The position numbers were made by a program, and so were the translations under genes. Positions 41,716-55,523 of a stretch of 64,000 nucleotides of DNA are shown one piece after another. The stretch spans positions 32,001 to 96,000 of the forward strand of contig JANNXA010000034.1 of assembly GCA_031409275.1 (NCBI GenBank), given 5' to 3'. How positions within the stretch are numbered: the stretch's first letter is position 1; each line of letters starts with the position of its first letter. The notes beneath the pieces were generated by a model. That model made no database searches. It saw only the letters and a list, made by a program, of their open reading frames with translations, and was not told where the DNA came from. This DNA is from Planctomycetota bacterium (lineage in GTDB: Bacteria > Planctomycetota > B15-G4 > SIAN01).

Positions 41716-43323
41716 ATGCGCAGTGCCGTTTCACGGATCCTGGCGGGAGTGAGCGTCATCGTGCTCGCGGTCGCGGGAGGGGGCGCGCGCGCACGCGAGG
41801 TCGCGAAGCCGCCCGAACTGTGGCTCTACCTCTCCACCAACCTGCTCGTGGACGAGAACGTCGCGAAGGCGCAGGCGCTGCTCGAGCGGGCCGCGCGCGC
41901 CGGCTACGCCTGCATCGTGCTGGCGGACCACAAGCTCTCGCTGCTCGATCAGATGGAGGAGCGCTACACCGGGAACGTGCAGCGTTTCCTGGCGACCGCG
42001 CGCGAGCAGAAGCTGCGCGTGGTGCCGGCGATCTTCCCGGTCGGCTACTCGGAAGGGCTGCTGCACCACGATCCGAATCTGGCCGAAGCGCTGCCGGCGA
42101 AGGCGGTGCGCTTCGTGGTGCAGGACGGGAAGGCACGCGAAGTGGCGCAGCGCCAGGAGCTGCTGCAGCCGGAATGGAAAGACGAGTGCTGGCACGAGGA
42201 GGCGCCCGGCGCGTGGCGCTGTCGCGCCCCCAACGGCAATGCGCGTGTCGTCTTCCGCGTGAAGGTGAAGCCGTGGCATGCCTACCACGTCGCGTTCACC
42301 GTGGAGACCAAGGAGTTCGAGGGCGAGCCCAAGGTGCAGGCGCTGGTGGGGGATCGCGGGCTGATCTTCTCGAACCTCGGCGCCGCGCGCACCCAGCCGC
42401 CGACGCTCCATCACGCCGTCTTCAACTCCTTCGAGCACGAAGAGCTACGGCTCTACTTCGGTGCGTGGGGCGCCGGCGGCGGGGATCTCGTCGTGAGCGG
42501 CGCGTCGCTCGAGGTGGCGGGAATGGTGAACCTCGTGCGTCGCGACGGCGCGCCGTTTCAGGTTCGCGACGTCGGCGGTCGGTTGCTGAAGGAGGGGCGT
42601 GACTACGAGCCGGTTCGCGATCCGAAGATGGGGGTGACGCCCTGGGTCGGCTCGTTCGACGTGTGGCACGAACCGCCCGCCATCGCCACGCGGCTTCCCG
42701 ATGGCACTCCGCTCGACGTCAGCTTCCATCACGTCGTCACGGTACACGACGGTCAGGTGATGATCTGCCCGTCCGAGCCGGCGACGCTCGCCGCACTGGC
42801 CGATCAGGCGCGCCGCGTCGCGGAGTTGTTCGGCCGCGAGGCCTTCTTCCTGTCGCACGACGAGATCCGCGTGCTGAACCAGGACGACTCGTGTCGGCGC
42901 CGGGGCCTCGATGCGGGAGCGCTGTTGGCCGACCACGTTCGCGCCTCCACGCAGATCGTGCGCAAGGTCGCGCCCAAGAGCGAGCTGTGGATCTGGAGCG
43001 ACATGTTCGATCCGCAGCACAACGCGCACGCCGACTACTACCTGGTGCGCGGCGACCTGGCCGGCGCCTGGGAGGGGGTGGCGAAGGAGGTCGGCATCGC
43101 CGCCTGGTACTTCGAGCAGCGCGACACGAGCCTGAGCTTCTTCAAGCAGCGCGGCCACCGATTGCTGATCGCCGGCTACTACGACGGCCCGGTCGCGGCG
43201 ATCGACGAGTGGCTCGTCTCGGCGAAGGCCGTGGGTGGCGTTGCCGCGGTGATGTACACCACCTGGCAGGCGCGCTACGACGACCTCGAGGCGTTCGCCG
43301 CGCGGGTGCGCGCCGCGAAGTGA
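41716..43323 (+). CDS. Secreted hypothetical protein, GH20-like TIM barrel with CBM-like insertion
   Basis: GAGG RBS; signal peptide; FFLSHDEIR, WIWSDMF, IAGYYD, MYTTW. Confidence 0.6.
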   Translation: MRSAVSRILAGVSVIVLAVAGGGARAREVAKPPELWLYLSTNLLVDENVAKAQALLERAARAGYACIVLADHKLSLLDQMEERYTGNVQRFLATAREQKLRVVPAIFPVGYSEGLLHHDPNLAEALPAKAVRFVVQDGKAREVAQRQELLQPEWKDECWHEEAPGAWRCRAPNGNARVVFRVKVKPWHAYHVAFTVETKEFEGEPKVQALVGDRGLIFSNLGAARTQPPTLHHAVFNSFEHEELRLYFGAWGAGGGDLVVSGASLEVAGMVNLVRRDGAPFQVRDVGGRLLKEGRDYEPVRDPKMGVTPWVGSFDVWHEPPAIATRLPDGTPLDVSFHHVVTVHDGQVMICPSEPATLAALADQARRVAELFGREAFFLSHDEIRVLNQDDSCRRRGLDAGALLADHVRASTQIVRKVAPKSELWIWSDMFDPQHNAHADYYLVRGDLAGAWEGVAKEVGIAAWYFEQRDTSLSFFKQRGHRLLIAGYYDGPVAAIDEWLVSAKAVGGVAAVMYTTWQARYDDLEAFAARVRAAK

Positions 43324-43898: not shown

Positions 43899-44609
43899 TC
43901 AGTTCAGCGCGCGCCAGAGTTGACCATCGACCGACGGCGCTGGATTGCCCGCCATCGAGAAGACGCCGGTGATCAGACCGGTCGAGCCGGTCTCGAAGGC
44001 GGCATCGGGTGGCGGCACGTTGCCGAGTCCCGAGTAGGTGCCGTTGGTGCCACCGACATTGTCGGACTGCACGAGGTCGCCGCCCTGGTTGACGGCGAAG
44101 ACGCGCTTGCCCGCGGTTCCGTAGCCCGCGGGCCACGCGTAGCAGACCCAGGCCACCTCGCAGAGGTTCGGATCTTCGCCGGCCGGCGAACCGCCGCCGC
44201 CCGCTTCGGTCACTGGCGCACCGCCGGGTGCCGGCAGCGCGAGACGGAAGACGTAACCCGACTTGGACACGACGCCGTTCGCGTTCACGACTCCGAGCGA
44301 GCGGGCGAGCGACGAGGGCGTCATGATCGCGCCGCCGTTGGGACCGGTGTTGTCGCGCACCGGCACCATGCCGCCCATTTCGGCGAACCAGCAGTACTCG
44401 CCGAGGCCATCGGTGTCCTGGTCGATCACCGCGGCCGTCTGCGCGACCGACTGCGCCGAGACGATGTGCTTCATCGTCGAGATCGCGGCCGATTCGTTGG
44501 CGCCGATGCGTGCGGACAACAGGTTCGGAAGCGCGATCCCCGCGATGATGGCGATCATCGAGACGACGATCAGCAGCTCCATCAAGGTGAAACCGTTTTG
44601 ACGACGCAT
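43899..44609 (-). CDS. Prepilin-type N-terminal cleavage/methylation protein (DUF2950-like C-terminus)
   Basis: GFTLMELLIVV, IALPNL..AR..ANE.AA, KSGYVF, AWP..YG..GKRVFAVN; GGAGG RBS. Confidence 0.88.
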   Translation of the reverse strand: MRRQNGFTLMELLIVVSMIAIIAGIALPNLLSARIGANESAAISTMKHIVSAQSVAQTAAVIDQDTDGLGEYCWFAEMGGMVPVRDNTGPNGGAIMTPSSLARSLGVVNANGVVSKSGYVFRLALPAPGGAPVTEAGGGGSPAGEDPNLCEVAWVCYAWPAGYGTAGKRVFAVNQGGDLVQSDNVGGTNGTYSGLGNVPPPDAAFETGSTGLITGVFSMAGNPAPSVDGQLWRALN

Positions 44610-44715: not shown

Positions 44716-46800
44716 TCAGGGCTTCACGAGGTGGCGCGCCGCCCAGGTGGCCAGCGCCGGGCGGGTCGCCGCAAGCGCCGCCAGAGCCGTACGGGCCTCG
44801 CCGCTCGTCGCATCACGCGCCATTTCGAGCAATTGCAGCGCGGCGCCGTCGTCGAGGCCCGGCAGCGCATCGCGCACCCGTGCGATCGCGTCCGACTCGC
44901 GCGCGCCGTCGAGGCGAGCGGTCGCCGTGGCGCGCGGGCTCGACCAGCCGGCGACATGGTCGCGATCGATCCAGATCGGATTGGTGATCGCCAGCGCACG
45001 CGGCAGGCTCATCGGCCAGTAGGGGGCGGTCACCTTCGGCGCGCTGGCGATCGCCACCAACCAGCTGTCATGGTCGGGGACACGCACGCGCACGCGGCGC
45101 ACGCGCTCGCGCGGGCCGTCGCCTGGCTGCATCTCGTCGAGCGCAACCGCTGCGGCCAACGTGCCGTCGATGACGATCTCGACCTGCTTCGGCGTGATCC
45201 ACGCCGGGTGGCGCACGCGCACCAGCGCTTCGACCTCGTCGCTCGCCGGCTCGACCGTGTCGCCCATGCCGCGCCCCTCGATCTCGATGGTGGCAAACAG
45301 GCCGTAGCTCACGCTGACTCGTCCTTCCTTGAACGCGCGGCAGGCGGCAGCGACGTCGATCTGCGCCGGATCGTCGGTGACGCTCGGCACGTAGGTGCGC
45401 CCCTGACCGACGATGACTCCGACCGCGTGCGAATCGGACGAACCGATCGCGGTGAAGCGCTCGCCGCGATTGAGCAGCGCAAACCACGCGGGGAGCACGC
45501 CTTCCGGAGGCGCCGTCGGGCCATCCGAGTTGACGATCTCGATGCAGTCGAACAGGAAGCGCTGACCGGTGCCGCGCTCGCCGCTCTGATCGTCGAATCG
45601 AAACGCCGTGAGCGGATCCTTGCCGTTCTCTGGCCAGCGCGGGTGATTCAGGATCACGACCTGCGCCCCCTTGGCTCGGATCCCCTCGACGAGCTTGCCC
45701 CAGTCGGTCTCCTTCCAAGGCGGGACGTCGGTCCCGGCCGGCAGCGGGAAGGCGTTCATGTGGCCGTTGTCGCTGGTCACTTCGTTGCCGACGACGGGCG
45801 TGAACCACCGCGTCAGTTGCAGGGCCTGCTGCGTCGGCCGGTAGTCGATCTGATGGTTGTGGTCGGTCGCGATGGGCAGCTCGAGCCCTTCGCCCGCGAT
45901 CGTGAACATGCGCTCTACGACCGTGGCGTCGCCATGCCCGCTGTGCGTCAGCGTGTGGATGTGGGTGTCGCACGCGACCCAGCCCGCCGTGTCGACCTCG
46001 CGCGCGATGACCAGCTCGACCTTGCGCGTGGCGCCGGTCACGACCTCGACGGCGACCTGCGCGACGCTCCATTCCATGCCGCGGCCGGCCCACACCGTCA
46101 CCGGGCCGGGCGGCAGCTCGAGCAGCGCGTGGCCCGCCTGCGTGTAGGCGATGCCGCGGCGCACCGCGGTGGAGCGCGCGTCGGCGTAGTAGAGCTCGAC
46201 GAGTGCGCCGCCTCGGTCGGTGAAGGTGAGGCGCGCGGGCAGCGGCTCGCCGTCGGGATCGTGCACGTCGACCTCAAGGCGCCCGAGCTGCAGCGCTTCG
46301 CGAAGCGAGCGCTGTTCGAGCCGCGCGCGGCCGACCAGCATGTCGTCTTTGGGGTCGCTGGCGATGATGCGCAGCTCGTTCTTGCCGGTCGCGACCGCGC
46401 CGGGCGGCACCACGAAGCGCAGCTCGGTCAGCGCCTTCACGCGCGCCAGCAGGCCGAGCGCCCGCCCATTCAGCTCGACGCTCCAATCGCTGTCGATGTC
46501 GCGTGCCGACAGGTAGAGCAGCCACTCGCCGGCGTTGGCCGCCGCCTCGAAAACGATCACCAGCGGAGCGGCCTCGGGTGGCGCGGGCGCCTCGGTCCAC
46601 TCCGGAGTCGGGTCGTCGCCGACGTGATGCAGCGTCGCGTCGAGCACTCGGCCCTCTACCTGTTGCGGTGCCAGGTCATGGCTGGCGGCGGTGAGCAGCA
46701 GCGGTGCGCTGGCGAGCGCGACCGCGAAGAGCGCGAGGCAGCGCGCGACCGCCCCTTGGCGAGTCGTCCGCGGCGAGCGAGCGCGAGTCGTCATCGTCAT
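44716..46800 (-). CDS. CehA/McbA family (PHP-like) metallohydrolase, secreted
   Basis: CDTHIHT..HSGHGD, ATDHN, GNEVT..GHMN, NHP, SSDSH; start uncertain (46800 or 46794). Confidence 0.85.
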   Translation of the reverse strand: MTMTTRARSPRTTRQGAVARCLALFAVALASAPLLLTAASHDLAPQQVEGRVLDATLHHVGDDPTPEWTEAPAPPEAAPLVIVFEAAANAGEWLLYLSARDIDSDWSVELNGRALGLLARVKALTELRFVVPPGAVATGKNELRIIASDPKDDMLVGRARLEQRSLREALQLGRLEVDVHDPDGEPLPARLTFTDRGGALVELYYADARSTAVRRGIAYTQAGHALLELPPGPVTVWAGRGMEWSVAQVAVEVVTGATRKVELVIAREVDTAGWVACDTHIHTLTHSGHGDATVVERMFTIAGEGLELPIATDHNHQIDYRPTQQALQLTRWFTPVVGNEVTSDNGHMNAFPLPAGTDVPPWKETDWGKLVEGIRAKGAQVVILNHPRWPENGKDPLTAFRFDDQSGERGTGQRFLFDCIEIVNSDGPTAPPEGVLPAWFALLNRGERFTAIGSSDSHAVGVIVGQGRTYVPSVTDDPAQIDVAAACRAFKEGRVSVSYGLFATIEIEGRGMGDTVEPASDEVEALVRVRHPAWITPKQVEIVIDGTLAAAVALDEMQPGDGPRERVRRVRVRVPDHDSWLVAIASAPKVTAPYWPMSLPRALAITNPIWIDRDHVAGWSSPRATATARLDGARESDAIARVRDALPGLDDGAALQLLEMARDATSGEARTALAALAATRPALATWAARHLVKP

Positions 46801-46944: not shown

Positions 46945-46997
46945 GAGTCGCGCCGTGCCGCGCCGCGAACCGCGCGCGCTCGCGGAAGGAGATCACC

Positions 46998-48266
46998 GTG
47001 CTGCATCTGGCTGCGCTCGCCCTCGGCTTCTCGATGGTGTCTGCGGTGGCGAACGGCGGCGCCGGTCAAGCGGCCGAGGCGATCGTCTGGGAGCGGGAGG
47101 TCGCGGTCGCGCAGGCGCGCGCCGCTCGCGAGCAGAAGCCGTTGCTGATGGTGCTGCGCTGCGAGAGGTGAGTGGATTGCAGCGCGTTCGACGGCCAGTT
47201 GGCCGCCGCCACCCCCGAGATCGTCGCGCTGGCCGCCAGCTTCGTCTGCGTGCGCGTCACCGACCTGCGCACGCTCGACCTCGCCCGCTGGCGCGTCGAC
47301 TTCGATCTCACGTTCGCCGCGCTGACCGCGACCCCGGAAGGTGCCGTGCTCCATCGCTACGGCGGCCGCGATGCGCGCGACGCCGAGGCGTTCCTCTCGC
47401 TGCCGTCGTTCGCGGCGTTCCTGCGCGGCTCACTGGCGCGCTTCACGGATGCGGCGCAGCGCCCGGCCGCGCCACCGGCCACGCTGGCGCCCCGCACGAT
47501 CGAGGCTTCGCCGACCTTCGCGCGACGCGATGCCGAGAAGCGCGTCGATTGCGTCCATTGCCACACCGTGAACGACTTCGAGCATCACGACGCCGTGGCC
47601 GAGGGCCGCTTCCGGCGCGACCAGATCTTCGTCTTCCCCGATCCTGCTCGGCTGGGTCTCGAAGTCGAGCGCGACGATCAGCAACAGGTCGCGCAGGTGA
47701 CGGCCGGCGGTGCTGCGGGGCGAGCGGGCCTTGCCGTTGGCGATCGACTGGCCACGGTCGCCGGGCAGCCGCTGTTGACGCGCGCCGACCTGCAGTGGGT
47801 GCTGCACCAGCAGCCGACGGGCGCGTGCGTGGTCGAGGTGGGAATCGTGCGGGCGGGCGCATCGCAGCGGTTGCGAATCAACCTGCGCGCCGGCTGGAAG
47901 GAGGCGGACGCCCTCGAGTACGCGTGGCGGCCCTACAAGTGGAACCTCACGCCAGGACCGGGATTCGGCGGCAAGCTGCTCGACGCGAAGCGCAAAGCGG
48001 AGCTCGGCCTCGCGCCCGACGCCTTCGCTCAGGAAGTCGGCTACCTCGTGACGTGGGGCGAGAAGGCGGCGACCGGCAAGAGCGCCAGCGCGGCAGGCTT
48101 GAAGAAGGGCGACGTCGTGGTCGGCGTCGCCGGCCAGCGCGACTTCAAGAGCGAGGACCATTTCCAGGCGTGGTTCCGTCTCACGCGCAAGGTGGGCGAA
48201 GTGGTCGATCTCGACATCATCCGCGCCGGCAAGCGCCAGACGCTGCGGATGAAGGTGGTCGAGTAG
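46998..48266 (+). CDS. Probable selenoprotein (Sec58, 422 aa): thioredoxin-7-like CxxUxxC, CxxCH and PDZ-like domains (Trx7/PDZ type)
   Basis: AAGGAG RBS, GTG 46998, signal peptide, then 'IVW...AAREQKPLLMVLRCER*VDCSAFD' with in-frame TGA at 47169-47171 running into ORF 47172-48266; CVHCH; two AA..AGL..GD PDZ motifs; SECIS-like hairpin. Confidence 0.85.
47169..47212 (+). promoter_or_regulatory. Candidate bacterial SECIS element
   Basis: UGA-GUGG...CGGCC-AGUU-GGCCG-ccg-CCAC. The apical loop has G at position 2 and starts 25 nt after the UGA. Confidence 0.55.
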
Positions 48267-50781: not shown

Positions 50782-52596
50782 TCAGTGGGTGCCCTGGCCC
50801 TCGGTGACCACGTGCTCGCGGTCGAGCGCGAGGTCGGCGAAGCGCTCGCGCTTGCCCGACGGCCAGCGCACCTCGACGGTCGCCGTCGTCTCCGTGGTCG
50901 AGCCGAGCCCGAAGGTCGCCGCGATGTCGCATTGGCTCAGGTACGAGGAGCCGGTGCGCACGTCGCGACGCAGCGTCTTGCCGCCGGTGGTGAGCGTGAC
51001 CACGGCGCCGATGGCGTCGCGGTTCTTCCCGGTGCCGCGCGGGCGGATGCGCAGCCAGCGGTGCTTGAGCGCCTGGTCGTTGCGCATGACGATCGCGGCG
51101 CGGCCGTTCTGGGTCATGACGAAGTCGAGGTCGCCGTCACCGTCGAGGTCGCCGGAAGTGGCTCCGCGCGCGACGACCGGGCGGGTGAAGACCTCGCCCG
51201 ACTTCGCGCTGACGTCGGCGAAGGTGCCGTCGCCGCGGTTCCAGAACAGCTGGGTCGGCTGCTCGTAGGCGACGTCCTTCTGGACCGACTGGATCTCCGG
51301 CTCGATGTGACCGTTGCAGACGAGGATGTCGTGGCAGCCGTCGAGGTCGTAGTCGCAGAAGACGACGGCGAAGGTCAGCGAGAGGTTGGTCGGCGTGGCG
51401 ACGCGCGCGGCGCCGGCGCGATCGATGAAGAAGATCTTGTCGCCGGTCTGCGTGTACATCGCGATCGGCTCCTTCGAGAAGTTGCCGATCGAGATGACGA
51501 GCTTGCCGTCGTTGCACACGTCGCAGGCGTCGATGCCCATGCCCGCTCGTGCGCGGCCGATCTCGTCGAACGCGATGCCCGCCTCGTTGGCCATCTCGGA
51601 GTAGCGGCCGTCGGGCTGGCTCACGAAGAGGTAGTTCGGTTCGGTGTCGTTGCTGACCGCGAAGTCGGGGCGGCCATCGCCGTTCACGTCGGCGACGGCG
51701 ACGCCGAGCGCCTTGCTGTCCTTGCGCAGGATGCCGGCGCGCTCCGTGACGTCCTCGAAGGAGCCGTCACCCTTGCCGCGCCACAGGCGGCAGCTGTCCG
51801 CTTCGTACTTGGTGGGGATGGTGTAGGCCTTGACCGACCCCAGCATCTCGAGGACGTCGTTCTCGATCGACCAGTGCACGTAGCCGCAGACGAACAGGTC
51901 GAGCACGCCGTCGCAGTCGTAGTCGACCCACGCGGCGCTCGTCGACCAGGCCGGGTGCACGCGCCCCTGCTTGTCGGTCCAGGTCGTGGTCTTCAGGCCC
52001 GAAGCTTCGGTGACGTCGACGAACTTGCCGCCATCGTTGCGCAGCAGGTGGTTTGGCCCGAGCGCGGTGATGAAGAGGTCCGCGTCGCCATCGCCGTCGT
52101 AGTCGGCCGCCGTCGCGCCCATGCCGATCAGCGACAGGCCGCAGCCGGCGGCTTGCGTCACATCCTCGAACTTCATGCCGCCGAGGTTCTTGTAGAGCTT
52201 GCAGGTCGGCGCCGGGTCGCTCGCGTGGTCGGGCCACTCTGCGCCCTGCAGGAAGAAGAGGTCTTGCTTGCCATCGGCGTCGTAGTCGAGCATCGCGACG
52301 CCCGCGCCCATCGTCTCCGGCAGGTACTTCTTGCCGCGCGCGCCGCTCACGTGGGTGAAGGCGATGCCGGACGCCGCAGTGGCATCCGCGAAGGCAACGG
52401 CGGGCGCCGCTTTGCCGCCGGTGTCGCGCGGGTCGAACTTCTCCTTGGGAACGTAGGTCTCGGGCGCGATGGGCGTCACCACCTCGACCTTCTTCTCTTC
52501 GCCGCAGCCGGCAAGGAGAGCGACGGTGGCGAGCGAGCTCGCGCCGAGGGTGGTGAAGGTGACGAGTCGAGCGGGACGCGAGTGCGAGCGGGGCAT
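50782..52596 (-). CDS. CRTAC1-family lipoprotein (FG-GAP repeats + ASPIC/UnbV)
   Basis: Lipobox LAGC; ETMGAG, repeated DxDGDG motifs, NRDAIGA.V, GSSYLSQ, FGLG, VRWPSG; alternative GTG 52668 coupled to the upstream stop. Confidence 0.9.
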   Translation of the reverse strand: MPRSHSRPARLVTFTTLGASSLATVALLAGCGEEKKVEVVTPIAPETYVPKEKFDPRDTGGKAAPAVAFADATAASGIAFTHVSGARGKKYLPETMGAGVAMLDYDADGKQDLFFLQGAEWPDHASDPAPTCKLYKNLGGMKFEDVTQAAGCGLSLIGMGATAADYDGDGDADLFITALGPNHLLRNDGGKFVDVTEASGLKTTTWTDKQGRVHPAWSTSAAWVDYDCDGVLDLFVCGYVHWSIENDVLEMLGSVKAYTIPTKYEADSCRLWRGKGDGSFEDVTERAGILRKDSKALGVAVADVNGDGRPDFAVSNDTEPNYLFVSQPDGRYSEMANEAGIAFDEIGRARAGMGIDACDVCNDGKLVISIGNFSKEPIAMYTQTGDKIFFIDRAGAARVATPTNLSLTFAVVFCDYDLDGCHDILVCNGHIEPEIQSVQKDVAYEQPTQLFWNRGDGTFADVSAKSGEVFTRPVVARGATSGDLDGDGDLDFVMTQNGRAAIVMRNDQALKHRWLRIRPRGTGKNRDAIGAVVTLTTGGKTLRRDVRTGSSYLSQCDIAATFGLGSTTETTATVEVRWPSGKRERFADLALDREHVVTEGQGTH

Positions 52597-52664
52597 GTCA
52601 GGTTCCGGAAGAGGAGGTCGTGAGAGAGGAGGTCGACCGGCCAGGCGGAGCGATGGCGCTCGAG

Positions 52665-55523
52665 TCACGAGCCGCCGGCCTTCGGCTTGGCCGGCAGCGG
52701 CGCGAGCTCATGCGCGTGCACGGTGTTCGTCTCGAGGTTGGCGTGCGGATCCTTGTGGCGGAAGTCGTTGGTGAGCGCCTGCGCCGACTCGTCGATCTGG
52801 TACTTCTCGTACGCCTTCGACGCCTCCTCCGCCTCGGCCGTGCGACCGAGCGCCTGCAGGTTCAGCATGCGGTGGTAGTGCGCCTCGCGGTCCTCGGGAT
52901 CGATGTCGAGCACCATCCCGTAGGCCTCGAGCGACTCGGGGAACTTCTGGTCGAGGTAGTACGTGCGGCCGAGCCGGCGCCACGTGTCGCGATCGGCGGG
53001 GAACTCCTGCAGCACGCGCTGGTACGCCTCGATCGCCTGCGCGTAGCGGCCATCTTCCTGCAGGCCGTTGCCCCAGACCCAGGCGGTCTGCGGATCGCCC
53101 GGCGCGAGCTCCTCGCACTTCGACAACAGCTCGAGCGCGCGCGCGATGCTGCCGTCGGTCAGCGCGTTGCGCGCCATGTTGCGGAAGCCGTCGACTTTCG
53201 CCGGCGCCACGCGCTGCACTTCGGCGAACCCGATCTCGGCGAGGCGCGTGTCGCCCTTCAGCATCATCGCGATGCCGTAGTCGTTGGGTCGGATCCACTG
53301 GTCGGGCGAGGCGTAGACGGCCGGCGGCGTCGGGTGCACCGTTTCGCCCATGGCGGCGACGCGCAGCGACACCTTGCTGCCGGCGATCTTGGTGACCGGG
53401 AGGTCGATCTTCTTGTCCGGGGTCTTCGCGAAGACGAAGTCGGTGTAGTGCTGCTTGAACTTGCGCCATTGGAGGTTCGCGGTGAGATCGAGCGTCGTGC
53501 CTGCCGCGCTCGCCGGCACCACGAACTGGTAGCGCACCACGTCGGACGTCGAGGGACCGATCACGTTGGCGTAGAGGCCGACGTGGAAGTCATGCGGATT
53601 GCGCAGCTTCGCCTCGGTCCCGTCGTGGGCGATGATCACCGCGCCGTAGCGATGCGCTGCCGGGTCGAGGTGCTGGTCGGGGCCGATCCAACCGCTGTGC
53701 AGCAGCTGGCCGCCGCCCTGCTGGTCGACCATGAACTCGAGGAAGCCTTCGTTGCTGTCGTTGGTGCCGCCCGGGAAGGTGTGTCCCACTCCCTTGTTGC
53801 GCACGACGACCTGCACTTCGATTCGCTCGCCCGGCACCAGGACCGGCTGGGTGCGATCGAGCGCGGTGACGACTTCGGTCTCGTTGCCCTGCGCGTCGAG
53901 GCGCCGCAGCGCGAAGACGTCGACGCGCATCTTCTCGTCCTGGAGGAAGTGCTCGATCCGCTGCAGCGTGTCGGTGTCGCCGCGCAGCGCCGGCAGCCCC
54001 GTGTTGGCCGCGAGGAAGCGGTGCGACTTGACCTTGCCGTCCTTCGAAGAGACGTCGCCGAGCGGCGCCTCCTCGAGCGGCATGTGGCAGTCCTGGCAGT
54101 TCTTCTTCACCGGAGCGCCGGTGACCGGATCGCGCGGTCGGTAGAAGGTGCGCGCGGCGTTCTGCGCCACGCCGCTGTCGTGCCAGTTGTCGTATTCGTT
54201 CTGTCCGCGGAACCAGCGGTACTTGTTGACCGGCACGTCGAGCGCGACCTTGTGGCACGTCGCGCAGAACTCGCTGGTCTTGAAGAACGGCTTCAGCATC
54301 CGTTCCTTGTGCACGTTCGGCTTCGCCTTGAGGACGATGTCGCCGATCGCGCGCAACGTCCCTTCGCTGGTGTCGTCGAAGAGGTAGGGCGACTCGCGGT
54401 CGTCGGGGATGTTGTAGGCGCCGTTGCCGGTCCGATTGTGCAGCGAGTCGATCGTGTGGCAGGCCAGGCAGGTGAGTCCTGCCTGCGCGTTGGGGCCGTC
54501 CGGATCGAATTCCTTGCCGATCTCGCCGGCCAGCATCAGTGCCGGCTCGTGGCAGCCCGAGCACCACTGCGACGGCTGCTTGCCGATGTCGGGCCGCTCG
54601 CGCATCGCGAGGAAGGACGCCCGATAGAACGGGTTGTTCATCGAGCTGAAGCGGTGCGCCGACTTGCTCCACTGCTCCACCACGTCGGGGTGGCAGCGCT
54701 GGCAGGTGACCGCGCCGATCTGGATGTCCTTCACGTAGCCGTACTTCGCGACCTCATCCTTCAATTGCGCCGCGTCGGGCAGCTCGCCGCGCGTGACGAC
54801 GGCCGACGCCATCCATTCGCCGGTCGCCGTGGTCGCCGGCGACGGGAAGAAGCGGCTGCTCGTGGGCACTTCGGTGAACGAGACGAAGGGGTGGAACGGG
54901 TCGATCGACGCGTCCTGCAGCAGCTCATCTTTCGGGACGGTGGCGAGCACGGTGCCGCGATCGATCGCGATGATGCGGTCGGAACGTTTGGGCAGCGTGA
55001 CCACATGGATGCCGAGCGCGAGGATGGCTGCGACGCAGGCACCGCCGATCGCCTTGCCGATCGAGCTCCAGGTCGGCGGCGTGACCGACGTCACGCGGTG
55101 GATGATGTAGACCAGCGGCAGCCCGACGCCGAGCCCGATGTGCGTCCAGTACTGCGGTTGGTTATCGCGGCTGTTGGCGGCCGTCATGATGAACAAGCCG
55201 CTCAGCATCAGGCCGACCATCGCGAGGATCAGCGAGACGCCGGTGCTGACGGCGACACCGTGGCGGCGCGCCCACGCGCGACCGAGGTGCCACACGGCGA
55301 AGATCAGCGCGCACGGGGTCAGCGCGATGCCGAGCAGCGTGTGGCCGAGCACCATCGACTGATAGAAGACGGGCAGCGTGTCGGGCGGCAGCCGGAACTG
55401 CTCGGTCGCTTCGGTCACGCGGAAGAGCAGCAGGAAGAGCGCGTTCGCGAGCATCGCGAGCCCGCCCCAGACGATGACCTTCAACAACACCCGCTGCGCG
55501 GGCGTCAGGATGCTCTGTCCCAT
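52665..55523 (-). CDS. Membrane-anchored pentaheme c-type cytochrome with C-terminal TPR repeats
   Basis: About 5 N-terminal TM helices with His pairs; CQRCH, CSGCH, CLACH, CATCH, CQDCH; GHTFPGGT; TPR-like C-terminus; GGAG RBS. Confidence 0.88.
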   Translation of the reverse strand: MGQSILTPAQRVLLKVIVWGGLAMLANALFLLLFRVTEATEQFRLPPDTLPVFYQSMVLGHTLLGIALTPCALIFAVWHLGRAWARRHGVAVSTGVSLILAMVGLMLSGLFIMTAANSRDNQPQYWTHIGLGVGLPLVYIIHRVTSVTPPTWSSIGKAIGGACVAAILALGIHVVTLPKRSDRIIAIDRGTVLATVPKDELLQDASIDPFHPFVSFTEVPTSSRFFPSPATTATGEWMASAVVTRGELPDAAQLKDEVAKYGYVKDIQIGAVTCQRCHPDVVEQWSKSAHRFSSMNNPFYRASFLAMRERPDIGKQPSQWCSGCHEPALMLAGEIGKEFDPDGPNAQAGLTCLACHTIDSLHNRTGNGAYNIPDDRESPYLFDDTSEGTLRAIGDIVLKAKPNVHKERMLKPFFKTSEFCATCHKVALDVPVNKYRWFRGQNEYDNWHDSGVAQNAARTFYRPRDPVTGAPVKKNCQDCHMPLEEAPLGDVSSKDGKVKSHRFLAANTGLPALRGDTDTLQRIEHFLQDEKMRVDVFALRRLDAQGNETEVVTALDRTQPVLVPGERIEVQVVVRNKGVGHTFPGGTNDSNEGFLEFMVDQQGGGQLLHSGWIGPDQHLDPAAHRYGAVIIAHDGTEAKLRNPHDFHVGLYANVIGPSTSDVVRYQFVVPASAAGTTLDLTANLQWRKFKQHYTDFVFAKTPDKKIDLPVTKIAGSKVSLRVAAMGETVHPTPPAVYASPDQWIRPNDYGIAMMLKGDTRLAEIGFAEVQRVAPAKVDGFRNMARNALTDGSIARALELLSKCEELAPGDPQTAWVWGNGLQEDGRYAQAIEAYQRVLQEFPADRDTWRRLGRTYYLDQKFPESLEAYGMVLDIDPEDREAHYHRMLNLQALGRTAEAEEASKAYEKYQIDESAQALTNDFRHKDPHANLETNTVHAHELAPLPAKPKAGGS

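Follow-up and report, generated by a model that had tools for sequence, protein, structure and literature searches.

MccSep (ExtKL, NF040886), a multiheme polysulfide reductase, combines a His/Cys-ligated heme with a nearby selenocysteine (Sec) nucleophile that attacks polysulfide and with an anion-binding arginine, as described in PMC13510729. The NCBIfam family NF041199, named Trx7/PDZ (seleno)protein, has featured in the literature as a predicted selenoprotein since 2008, when it appeared as a 'putative secreted serine protease MucD' with a CxxU motif (Zhang & Gladyshev, PMC2398784, accessible part); two sequences deposited in the supplement carry R-C-x-P-U, the same motif as the family. 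The available portions of further papers describe the family as 'MucD fused with PDZ' with extra conserved Cys 'without clear function' (PMC9402790), as a 'PDZ domain-containing protein' (tables of PMC9312934) and as CxxU with one Sec (PMC13188914, Table 1).

Here we describe a gene of this family in a window of 64,000 nt, the whole stretch of Planctomycetota DNA that was analysed. The read-through product matches NF041199 with 350.4 bits (cut-off 300) over the whole model, in agreement with the original prediction, which had stated that such a family was already named. It had also stated that no function is known to be established for the family, and our full-text literature search indeed yielded neither a functional study of NF041199 nor an experiment on any of its members. 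With its C55-E-R-U58 motif the gene is one more member of a catalogued, uncharacterised family, in exactly the catalogued form (one Sec, CxxU). The family is present in 137 of 401 sampled genomes of the phylum, about a third, and as a gene call alone the locus is routine, a mis-started catalogued member. Its value beyond the gene call lies in the family comparison, which reveals an invariant CxHCH motif, a dispensable C61, a missing cis-proline and UxxU as the commonest form. The CxHCH motif, a heme, the third Cys with the dispensable C61, the missing cis-Pro and the UxxU form are absent from the accessible parts of the published descriptions examined, and other literature may have them.

Gene model and domain architecture

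The gene and its parts are as follows (window coordinates).

46986..46991, plus strand: Shine-Dalgarno-like AAGGAG, with a 6-nt spacer to the GTG start, read from the sequence
46998..48266, plus strand: whole CDS, 422 aa with Sec58, NF041199 member (350.4 bits against 300; profile positions 2-390 of 390)
46998..47072, plus strand: predicted signal peptide with hydrophobic core LAALALGFSMV; the hydrophobic stretch upstream of the domain is present in nearly all family copies
47076..47453, plus strand: thioredoxin-fold domain, residues 27-152, of the DsbD-gamma/DsbH/AGR2/ERp18 class, no cis-Pro (Pfam, model and fold matches)
47160..47162, plus strand: Cys55 (TGC), an additional thiol located three residues N-terminal to the nucleophile; 73 of 163 copies have TGA here and the others Cys
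47169..47171, plus strand: TGA taken as Sec58, the thioredoxin nucleophile position; TGA in 131 and Cys in 32 of 163 copies, aligned with the active Cys of AGR2
47178..47180, plus strand: Cys61, which occupies the canonical resolving position and is dispensable in the family (150 of 163 copies have Cys, none TGA)
47192..47205, plus strand: upper stem of a bacterial SECIS (bSECIS) element, CGGCC-AGUU-GGCCG, whose loop lies 25 nt downstream of the UGA and has G as its second base
47490..47645, plus strand: small helical subdomain with CxHCH, residues ~165-216, from the model's secondary structure; barely covered by matches to solved structures
47550..47564, plus strand: C185-V-H187-C188-H189, putative heme c attachment motif, invariant in the family
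47649..47885, plus strand: PDZ domain 1 (DegP/DegQ type), from Pfam PDZ_2 at residues 218-296 and structure matches
47961..48260, plus strand: PDZ domain 2 with approximate limits, from a second PDZ_2 stretch, model strands and DegP tandem-PDZ matches

The table-11 list of open reading frames places the gene start at 47172, immediately 3' of the TGA. The original prediction had extended the frame upstream through TGA 47169-47171 to a GTG preceded by AAGGAG, and this reading is confirmed in the sequence: a single gene of 422 codons occupies 46998..48266 (+), in which 57 sense codons from the GTG at 46998 lead to the TGA at codon 58, followed by 364 codons and a TAG at 48264-48266. The predicted upstream signal peptide also stands, in that 155 of 160 distinct copies have a hydrophobic stretch ahead of the domain, compared with 22 of 489 control windows. 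The protein is thus very probably exported, judging from this signal-like stretch.

A divergent gene for a CehA/McbA-type metallohydrolase and a convergent gene for a soluble transhydrogenase flank the locus, so that the Trx7/PDZ gene is probably transcribed alone; a promoter scan returned no sigma-70-like site for it. A search of sequencing runs listed no RNA data set with the gene, a result that says nothing about its expression. Clustering of neighbouring genes across 124 loci, based on crude custom gene calls, gave no conserved neighbour beyond genus-level synteny, the next largest clusters being found in 16 and 10 loci. The divergent neighbour (44716-46800, minus strand; NF038032, 159 bits against a cut-off of 80) is kept alongside the gene at loci L061, L071 and L072. 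Two further genes upstream are a 535-aa protein gene with a signal-like N-terminus (41716-43323, plus strand), conserved at L061 and L072 and free of NCBIfam and Pfam matches, and one for a prepilin-type N-terminal methylation protein with a weak DUF2950 match (43899-44609, minus strand). On the other side, a 952-aa protein (52665-55523, minus strand) that is hydrophobic near its N-terminus and carries several CxxCH motifs (Cytochrome_C554 match) and TPR repeats is encoded upstream of an FG-GAP/ASPIC-UnbV protein (50782-52668, minus strand), and this pair is syntenic with the selenoprotein gene in close relatives only.

The thioredoxin-7-type domain and tandem PDZ of the original prediction were both recovered by Pfam: Thioredoxin_7 (PF13899) matches residues 31-89 with 34.8 bits (cut-off 27), largely over sequence that precedes or spans the TGA, and two PDZ_2 (PF13180) stretches lie C-terminal to it. 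AlphaFold2, run on the mature chain with a 134-row alignment, gave a confident four-part model (pLDDT 96.2, pTM 0.92). No solved structure matches the whole model, with TM-scores of at most 0.26 among the entries listed (PDZ parts of DegP/DegQ). The N-terminal half matches 3f9u (Z 14.2, rmsd 2.3, 117 residues aligned), 2lst (11.7), AGR3 (11.0) and DsbH (10.2), as well as DsbD-gamma. In the motif L-R-C55-E-R-U58-V-D-C61, U58xxC61 lies at the start of helix 2, the classical CxxC position; U58 is matched by the active Cys of both AGR2 (CPHS) and an ERp18-like protein (CGSC), and C61 falls at the resolving position. The claim that the TGA falls on the active-site position is therefore borne out. 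The thioredoxin cis-proline, which binds polypeptide substrates and excludes metals at CxxC according to the accessible part of PMC2757866, was not found: the reference Pro aligns near F106, where D-L-T-F is present instead, this copy has no Pro at 103-108, and in the 163 copies the six most frequent residues at each of these positions do not include Pro. Conserved arginines are R54, R86, R120, R124 and R311.

The 119 database proteins nearest to this one are all 326-395 aa long and without a Thioredoxin_7 match, which is what gene calls restarted downstream of the UGA would give, and all 120 database matches to a Cys-only member carry Thioredoxin_7. In databases the Sec forms appear truncated under the names 'PDZ protein' or 'serine protease Do', and the named members come from Planctomycetota, Poribacteria and Verrucomicrobiales. 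One verrucomicrobial protein (P0364) has C61 replaced, CTECH in place of CxHCH and a C-terminal extension of ~180 aa. Among the best 150 of 2701 matches to a profile of the N-terminal half, none shows a clearly different architecture; of the entries without CxxCH in that set, three family-like ones are truncated or frameshifted (those read) and most others are short. The same profile also drew one ERp18-like repeat protein and one protein with a C-terminal extension.

Evidence for selenocysteine at codon 58

To compare codon states we assembled 163 full-length copies (150 matches listed, with 32 weaker ones outside the list, plus 17 added loci, minus three duplicates and one frameshifted copy). 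The excluded copy (L070), from a close relative, has its match split over two frames after the Sec motif, by a frameshift or an assembly error. The original prediction had called for an alignment of homologues at codon 58, and this position is TGA in 131 copies and Cys in 32, with nothing else observed. Positions 55 and 58 are always Cys or Sec, as UxxU in 73 copies, CxxU in 58 and CxxC in 32; UxxC does not occur among the 163. The commonest form is thus UxxU, with two UGAs 9 nt apart, whereas the published table gives one Sec. Position 61 is never TGA: 150 copies have Cys there and 13 have G, N, A, F or S, and Cys61 is also missing in further Cys-only database proteins. On a FastTree tree computed with the Cys/Sec motif masked, position 55 has changed from Cys to Sec or back at least 24 times and C61 is lost about ten times, while 55 and 58 are never lost; the Cys state at 58 needs only four changes, so that kin are not independent. 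The predicted UxxC register accordingly stands structurally, U58 being equivalent to the active Cys of AGR2 and C61 to the resolving position, but the invariant pair in the family is 55/58, not 58/61. Two or three paralogues are present in 26 of 119 genomes, often as a mix of CxxC, CxxU and UxxU; two paralogues lie within a few kb at L081, L135 and L151 (genomes G104, G229 and G305), as adjacent tandem UxxU pairs in G229 and G305.

The decoding machinery, for which the original prediction had asked as selABCD, is present in the gene's own genome, with selA (484 bits), selB (334) and selD (338) all above their cut-offs and tRNA-Sec (selC) at 76 bits against 47; selD has an in-frame TGA of its own and adjoins selA. 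ARAGORN with default settings called only one tRNA-Sec, and a second Rfam tRNA-Sec match (C50:268209-268302, minus strand; 49.2 against a gathering threshold of 47) is probably an ordinary long-arm tRNA. Across the 119 family-holding genomes, selA was found in 92 of the 95 with a TGA copy, and the three without it are fragmented MAGs (92, 84 and 67% complete). In the 24 Cys-only genomes selA is absent from 16, weakly matched in two and clear in six.

The hairpin after the UGA matches the bSECIS description used here (loop of 3-9 nt located 16-37 nt after the UGA, G among the first two loop nucleotides, at least 4 stem pairs, minimum free energy of -7.5 kcal/mol or lower; consensus model in the legend of Fig. 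2A, PMC13188914, seen in part), with loop AGUU 25 nt after the UGA, 5 pairs and -11.3 kcal/mol. This confirms the presence of the predicted CGGCC-AGUU-GGCCG element, which in TGA copies is conserved with compensatory changes, but in this gene alone it is indistinguishable from chance: z was +0.67, +0.82 and -0.78 in three windows, and 38.5% of synonymous recodings of the stretch also pass the bSECIS filter. The hairpin is significant only across the family. A family filter requiring a loop 24-26 nt past codon 58, a G at one of the first two loop nucleotides and at least -7.5 kcal/mol was passed by 119 of 131 TGA copies, comprising 67 of 73 UxxU copies (12.6 expected from synonymous recoding) and 52 of 58 CxxU copies (11.8 expected), compared with one of 31 distinct Cys copies (2.2 expected). 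Stem pair 23-33 varies in a compensatory manner (GC 64, CG 17, AU 13, UA 4, GU 2; n=100), and 104 of the 131 TGA copies have the rare TTG or GTT as their loop codon (background 6-9%), a pattern that fits the bSECIS model as given in the accessible part of PMC13188914. A second hairpin just after codon 58 is found in 28 of 73 UxxU copies (7.4 expected), one of 58 CxxU copies and none of 32 CxxC copies; it is absent from the present gene and from the other 45 UxxU copies. A sign test over 11 independent tree pairs gave a median p of 0.06, so the tie between this proximal hairpin and the UxxU form is suggestive only.

Taken with the machinery and the codon states, these patterns make it almost certain that UGA58 is read as Sec by SelB acting on the in-gene hairpin. 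Gene callers begin the protein after the TGA and sources call relatives 'serine protease Do', as would fit a true stop in a pseudogene or split gene, or a MucD/DegP-type serine protease, an explanation to which we give hardly any credence. The TGA occurs only at Cys positions of the motif, together with a covarying hairpin and selA, and all five close relatives found in the gene's own genus and family keep one in-frame TGA, at codon 58 in the three that were read; the pseudogene reading was rejected. A protease was likewise rejected: NCBIfam, Pfam and structure matches reveal no protease domain, trypsin-like or other, the protease-like matches are confined to the PDZ part, and the N-terminal half folds as thioredoxin.

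The original prediction had called this the second selenoprotein of the window, a count that we did not confirm; a crude scan gave three other in-frame TGAs with coding-like flanks and one further site, none with a Cys-type motif. Elsewhere the genome is selenoprotein-rich, with ~15-18 other in-frame TGA sites that combine bSECIS-like hairpins with redox-type motifs on contigs C3, C6, C7, C9, C23, C28, C30, C33, C34 (outside the window), C40, C43, C45, C47, C50 and C51. From their motifs we take these to include three near-identical thioredoxin-like genes (FWG(F/Y)W-U-GPC), two peroxiredoxin-like ones (TPG-U-TKE) and a deiodinase-like one (GSFT-U-GP); the motifs VPG-U-STC and GVG-U-SG and the selD gene are also among the sites.

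The CxHCH motif and its surroundings

C185, C188 and H189 are present in all 149 non-redundant copies and H187 in 162 of 163. Apart from H187 inside the motif, the 163 copies contain no other near-invariant His or Met as a candidate distal ligand. CxxCH occurs in 69 of 2504 coding-like reading frames of the gene's own genome, and here it is conserved in a likely exported protein of a host with a maturation gene, the combination taken to mark a c-type cytochrome. The cytochrome c assembly gene (PF01578) was detected in the gene's own genome and in every one of the 72 genomes tested out of the 136 others that hold the family; such genes are probably near-universal in the phylum, so that this co-occurrence counts only weakly for heme. 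Fold searches returned no cytochrome, and their matches cover mainly model residues 1-130, with the CxHCH subdomain poorly covered. The original prediction had taken CVHCH as a hint of heme c; from the invariance of the motif, export and the maturation genes we infer that heme c is probably attached to C185 and C188 with H189 as the proximal ligand.

Mean-field co-evolution analysis with custom code, which was shallow (195-285 effective sequences for 396 columns) and blind to invariant residues, coupled thioredoxin segment 90-99 to the CxHCH subdomain (all-sequence run: T92-E169 at rank 6, R99-E195 at 17, T92-V186 at 68 and R91-F174 at 69) and the same region to the end of the active-site strand (full-length run: L53-L93 at rank 11, L53-V100 at 28). 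These pairs locate CxHCH at the face that bears the active site, towards C55, and on balance the putative heme subdomain seems to pack there against the thioredoxin domain. PDZ1 co-evolves with the far helix of the thioredoxin domain (R148-L260, A140-D227, R120-W267), implying that part of the PDZ conservation reflects packing.

Possible mechanisms and comparison with known systems

The protein combines a likely exported, invariant CxxCH that lacks a distal His or Met with an obligatory extra thiol predicted to face it, a Sec nucleophile and several conserved arginines, and the simplest reading of this set is a catalytic unit of heme c and Sec. We tentatively propose a reductase of S-S bonds, with Sec58 attacking the substrate and Cys55 providing the connection to the heme. 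UGA58 would be decoded as Sec by SelB via the in-gene hairpin and the protein exported by its signal peptide; heme c would then be held on C185/C188 with H189 as proximal ligand, in a subdomain lying against the active-site face beside Cys55. Sec58 would serve as the nucleophile, Cys55 as its obligatory partner, either a distal heme ligand or a relay to the heme edge, and Cys61 as an optional resolving thiol. By analogy with MccSep, periplasmic cytochromes may supply electrons that the heme hands to Cys55/Sec58 for transfer to a disulfide, persulfide or polysulfide substrate, and the PDZ pair may act as a scaffold that docks protein clients. The direction of electron flow is a guess. Against a reductase, one heme carries one electron and S-S cleavage needs two, and no conserved neighbour gene at the 124 loci hints at an electron donor or substrate. 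The broader idea that NF041199 is a widespread class of mono-heme c selenoenzymes, in which the thioredoxin domain caps a mini-cytochrome, residue 55 is the sixth ligand or a direct relay, Sec58 is the catalyst and the UxxU form has a His/Sec-ligated or Sec-wired heme, is speculative and on present evidence unlikely.

The closest solved folds (the DsbD-gamma-like 3f9u, DsbH, AGR2/AGR3 and ERp18), the canonical register of U58xxC61 with C61 kept in 150 of 163 copies, and a tandem PDZ resembling that of DegP/DegQ quality-control proteins would also suit an ordinary exported thioredoxin-type selenoprotein, an isomerase, reductase or redox chaperone (DsbH/ERp18/AGR2-like) working on PDZ-captured misfolded proteins, with CxHCH forming a structural or shuttle disulfide or an uncoupled heme. 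We consider this somewhat unlikely, because it leaves unexplained why position 55 is never lost and is often Sec; the polypeptide-binding cis-Pro is missing, both CxHCH histidines are invariant (H187 in 162 of 163), and the PDZ1 helix co-evolves with the thioredoxin domain, so that PDZ conservation is in part packing. Alternatively, the three closely spaced Cys/Sec residues C55, U58 and C61 might form a site for a soft metal or metalloid (Cu, Hg, As or Fe-S), freed by loss of the cis-Pro, which reportedly keeps metals from binding at CxxC (cited in PMC2757866) and perhaps helped by the near-invariant H187 (162 of 163), which would make the protein a periplasmic metal chaperone or sensor. This is improbable in our view, since 13 of 163 copies, together with further Cys-only proteins in databases, have lost the third ligand, and no metal-transport gene is evident, judged from sequence, among the most shared neighbour clusters.

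The same heme-coupled architecture could run in reverse, as a self-contained thiol oxidase passing electrons from client dithiols through Sec58/Cys55 and the heme to the respiratory chain, a QSOX-like logic with heme in place of FAD. The exported location, the fusion of a thioredoxin domain to a cofactor domain and the PDZ client-binding modules agree with such an oxidase, yet UxxU is the commonest form, and selenylsulfide and diselenide centres have low redox potentials that favour reduction; the chance that the protein is an oxidase appears slim. Returning to the proposed heme c/Sec reductase, if CxHCH does carry heme beside the Cys/Sec pair, the protein would be a compact model of selenium chemistry wired to cytochrome electron flow, and the heme idea can be tested on Cys-only members from cultured Planctomycetota, without Sec machinery.

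Compared with the HtrA/DegP/DegQ/MucD proteases, the Sec58 protein has the C-terminal tandem PDZ in common but lacks a protease domain, with the whole-model TM-score at or below 0.26 to the entries listed. Like the magnetochrome proteins MamP and MamE, as described in the available part of PMC3971196, it pairs a very small CxxCH unit with PDZ domains; it differs in having a single motif and, in place of a trypsin domain or none, a thioredoxin domain. Assignment to the magnetochromes was rejected: the sequence does not follow [P/T/H]H-x5-9-CxxCH (PMC3971196, same part), there being no His in the 30 residues before C185. With the exported folds of DsbD-gamma, DsbH, AGR2-AGR3 and ERp18 it shares fold and active-site register, and in contrast to them it lacks the cis-Pro and adds a Cys (Cys or Sec in the family) three residues before the nucleophile, the CxHCH subdomain and two PDZ domains.

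MccSep likewise joins Sec to heme c, here putative, in one exported protein. The two are not homologous, MccSep having five hemes and an Ig-like domain and the Sec58 protein a single CxxCH, a thioredoxin fold and PDZ domains; NF040886 gave no match on the Sec58 protein and a weak, motif-only match on a neighbour. The Cys heme ligand of MccSep serves as the model for the mechanism proposed here, by functional analogy only.
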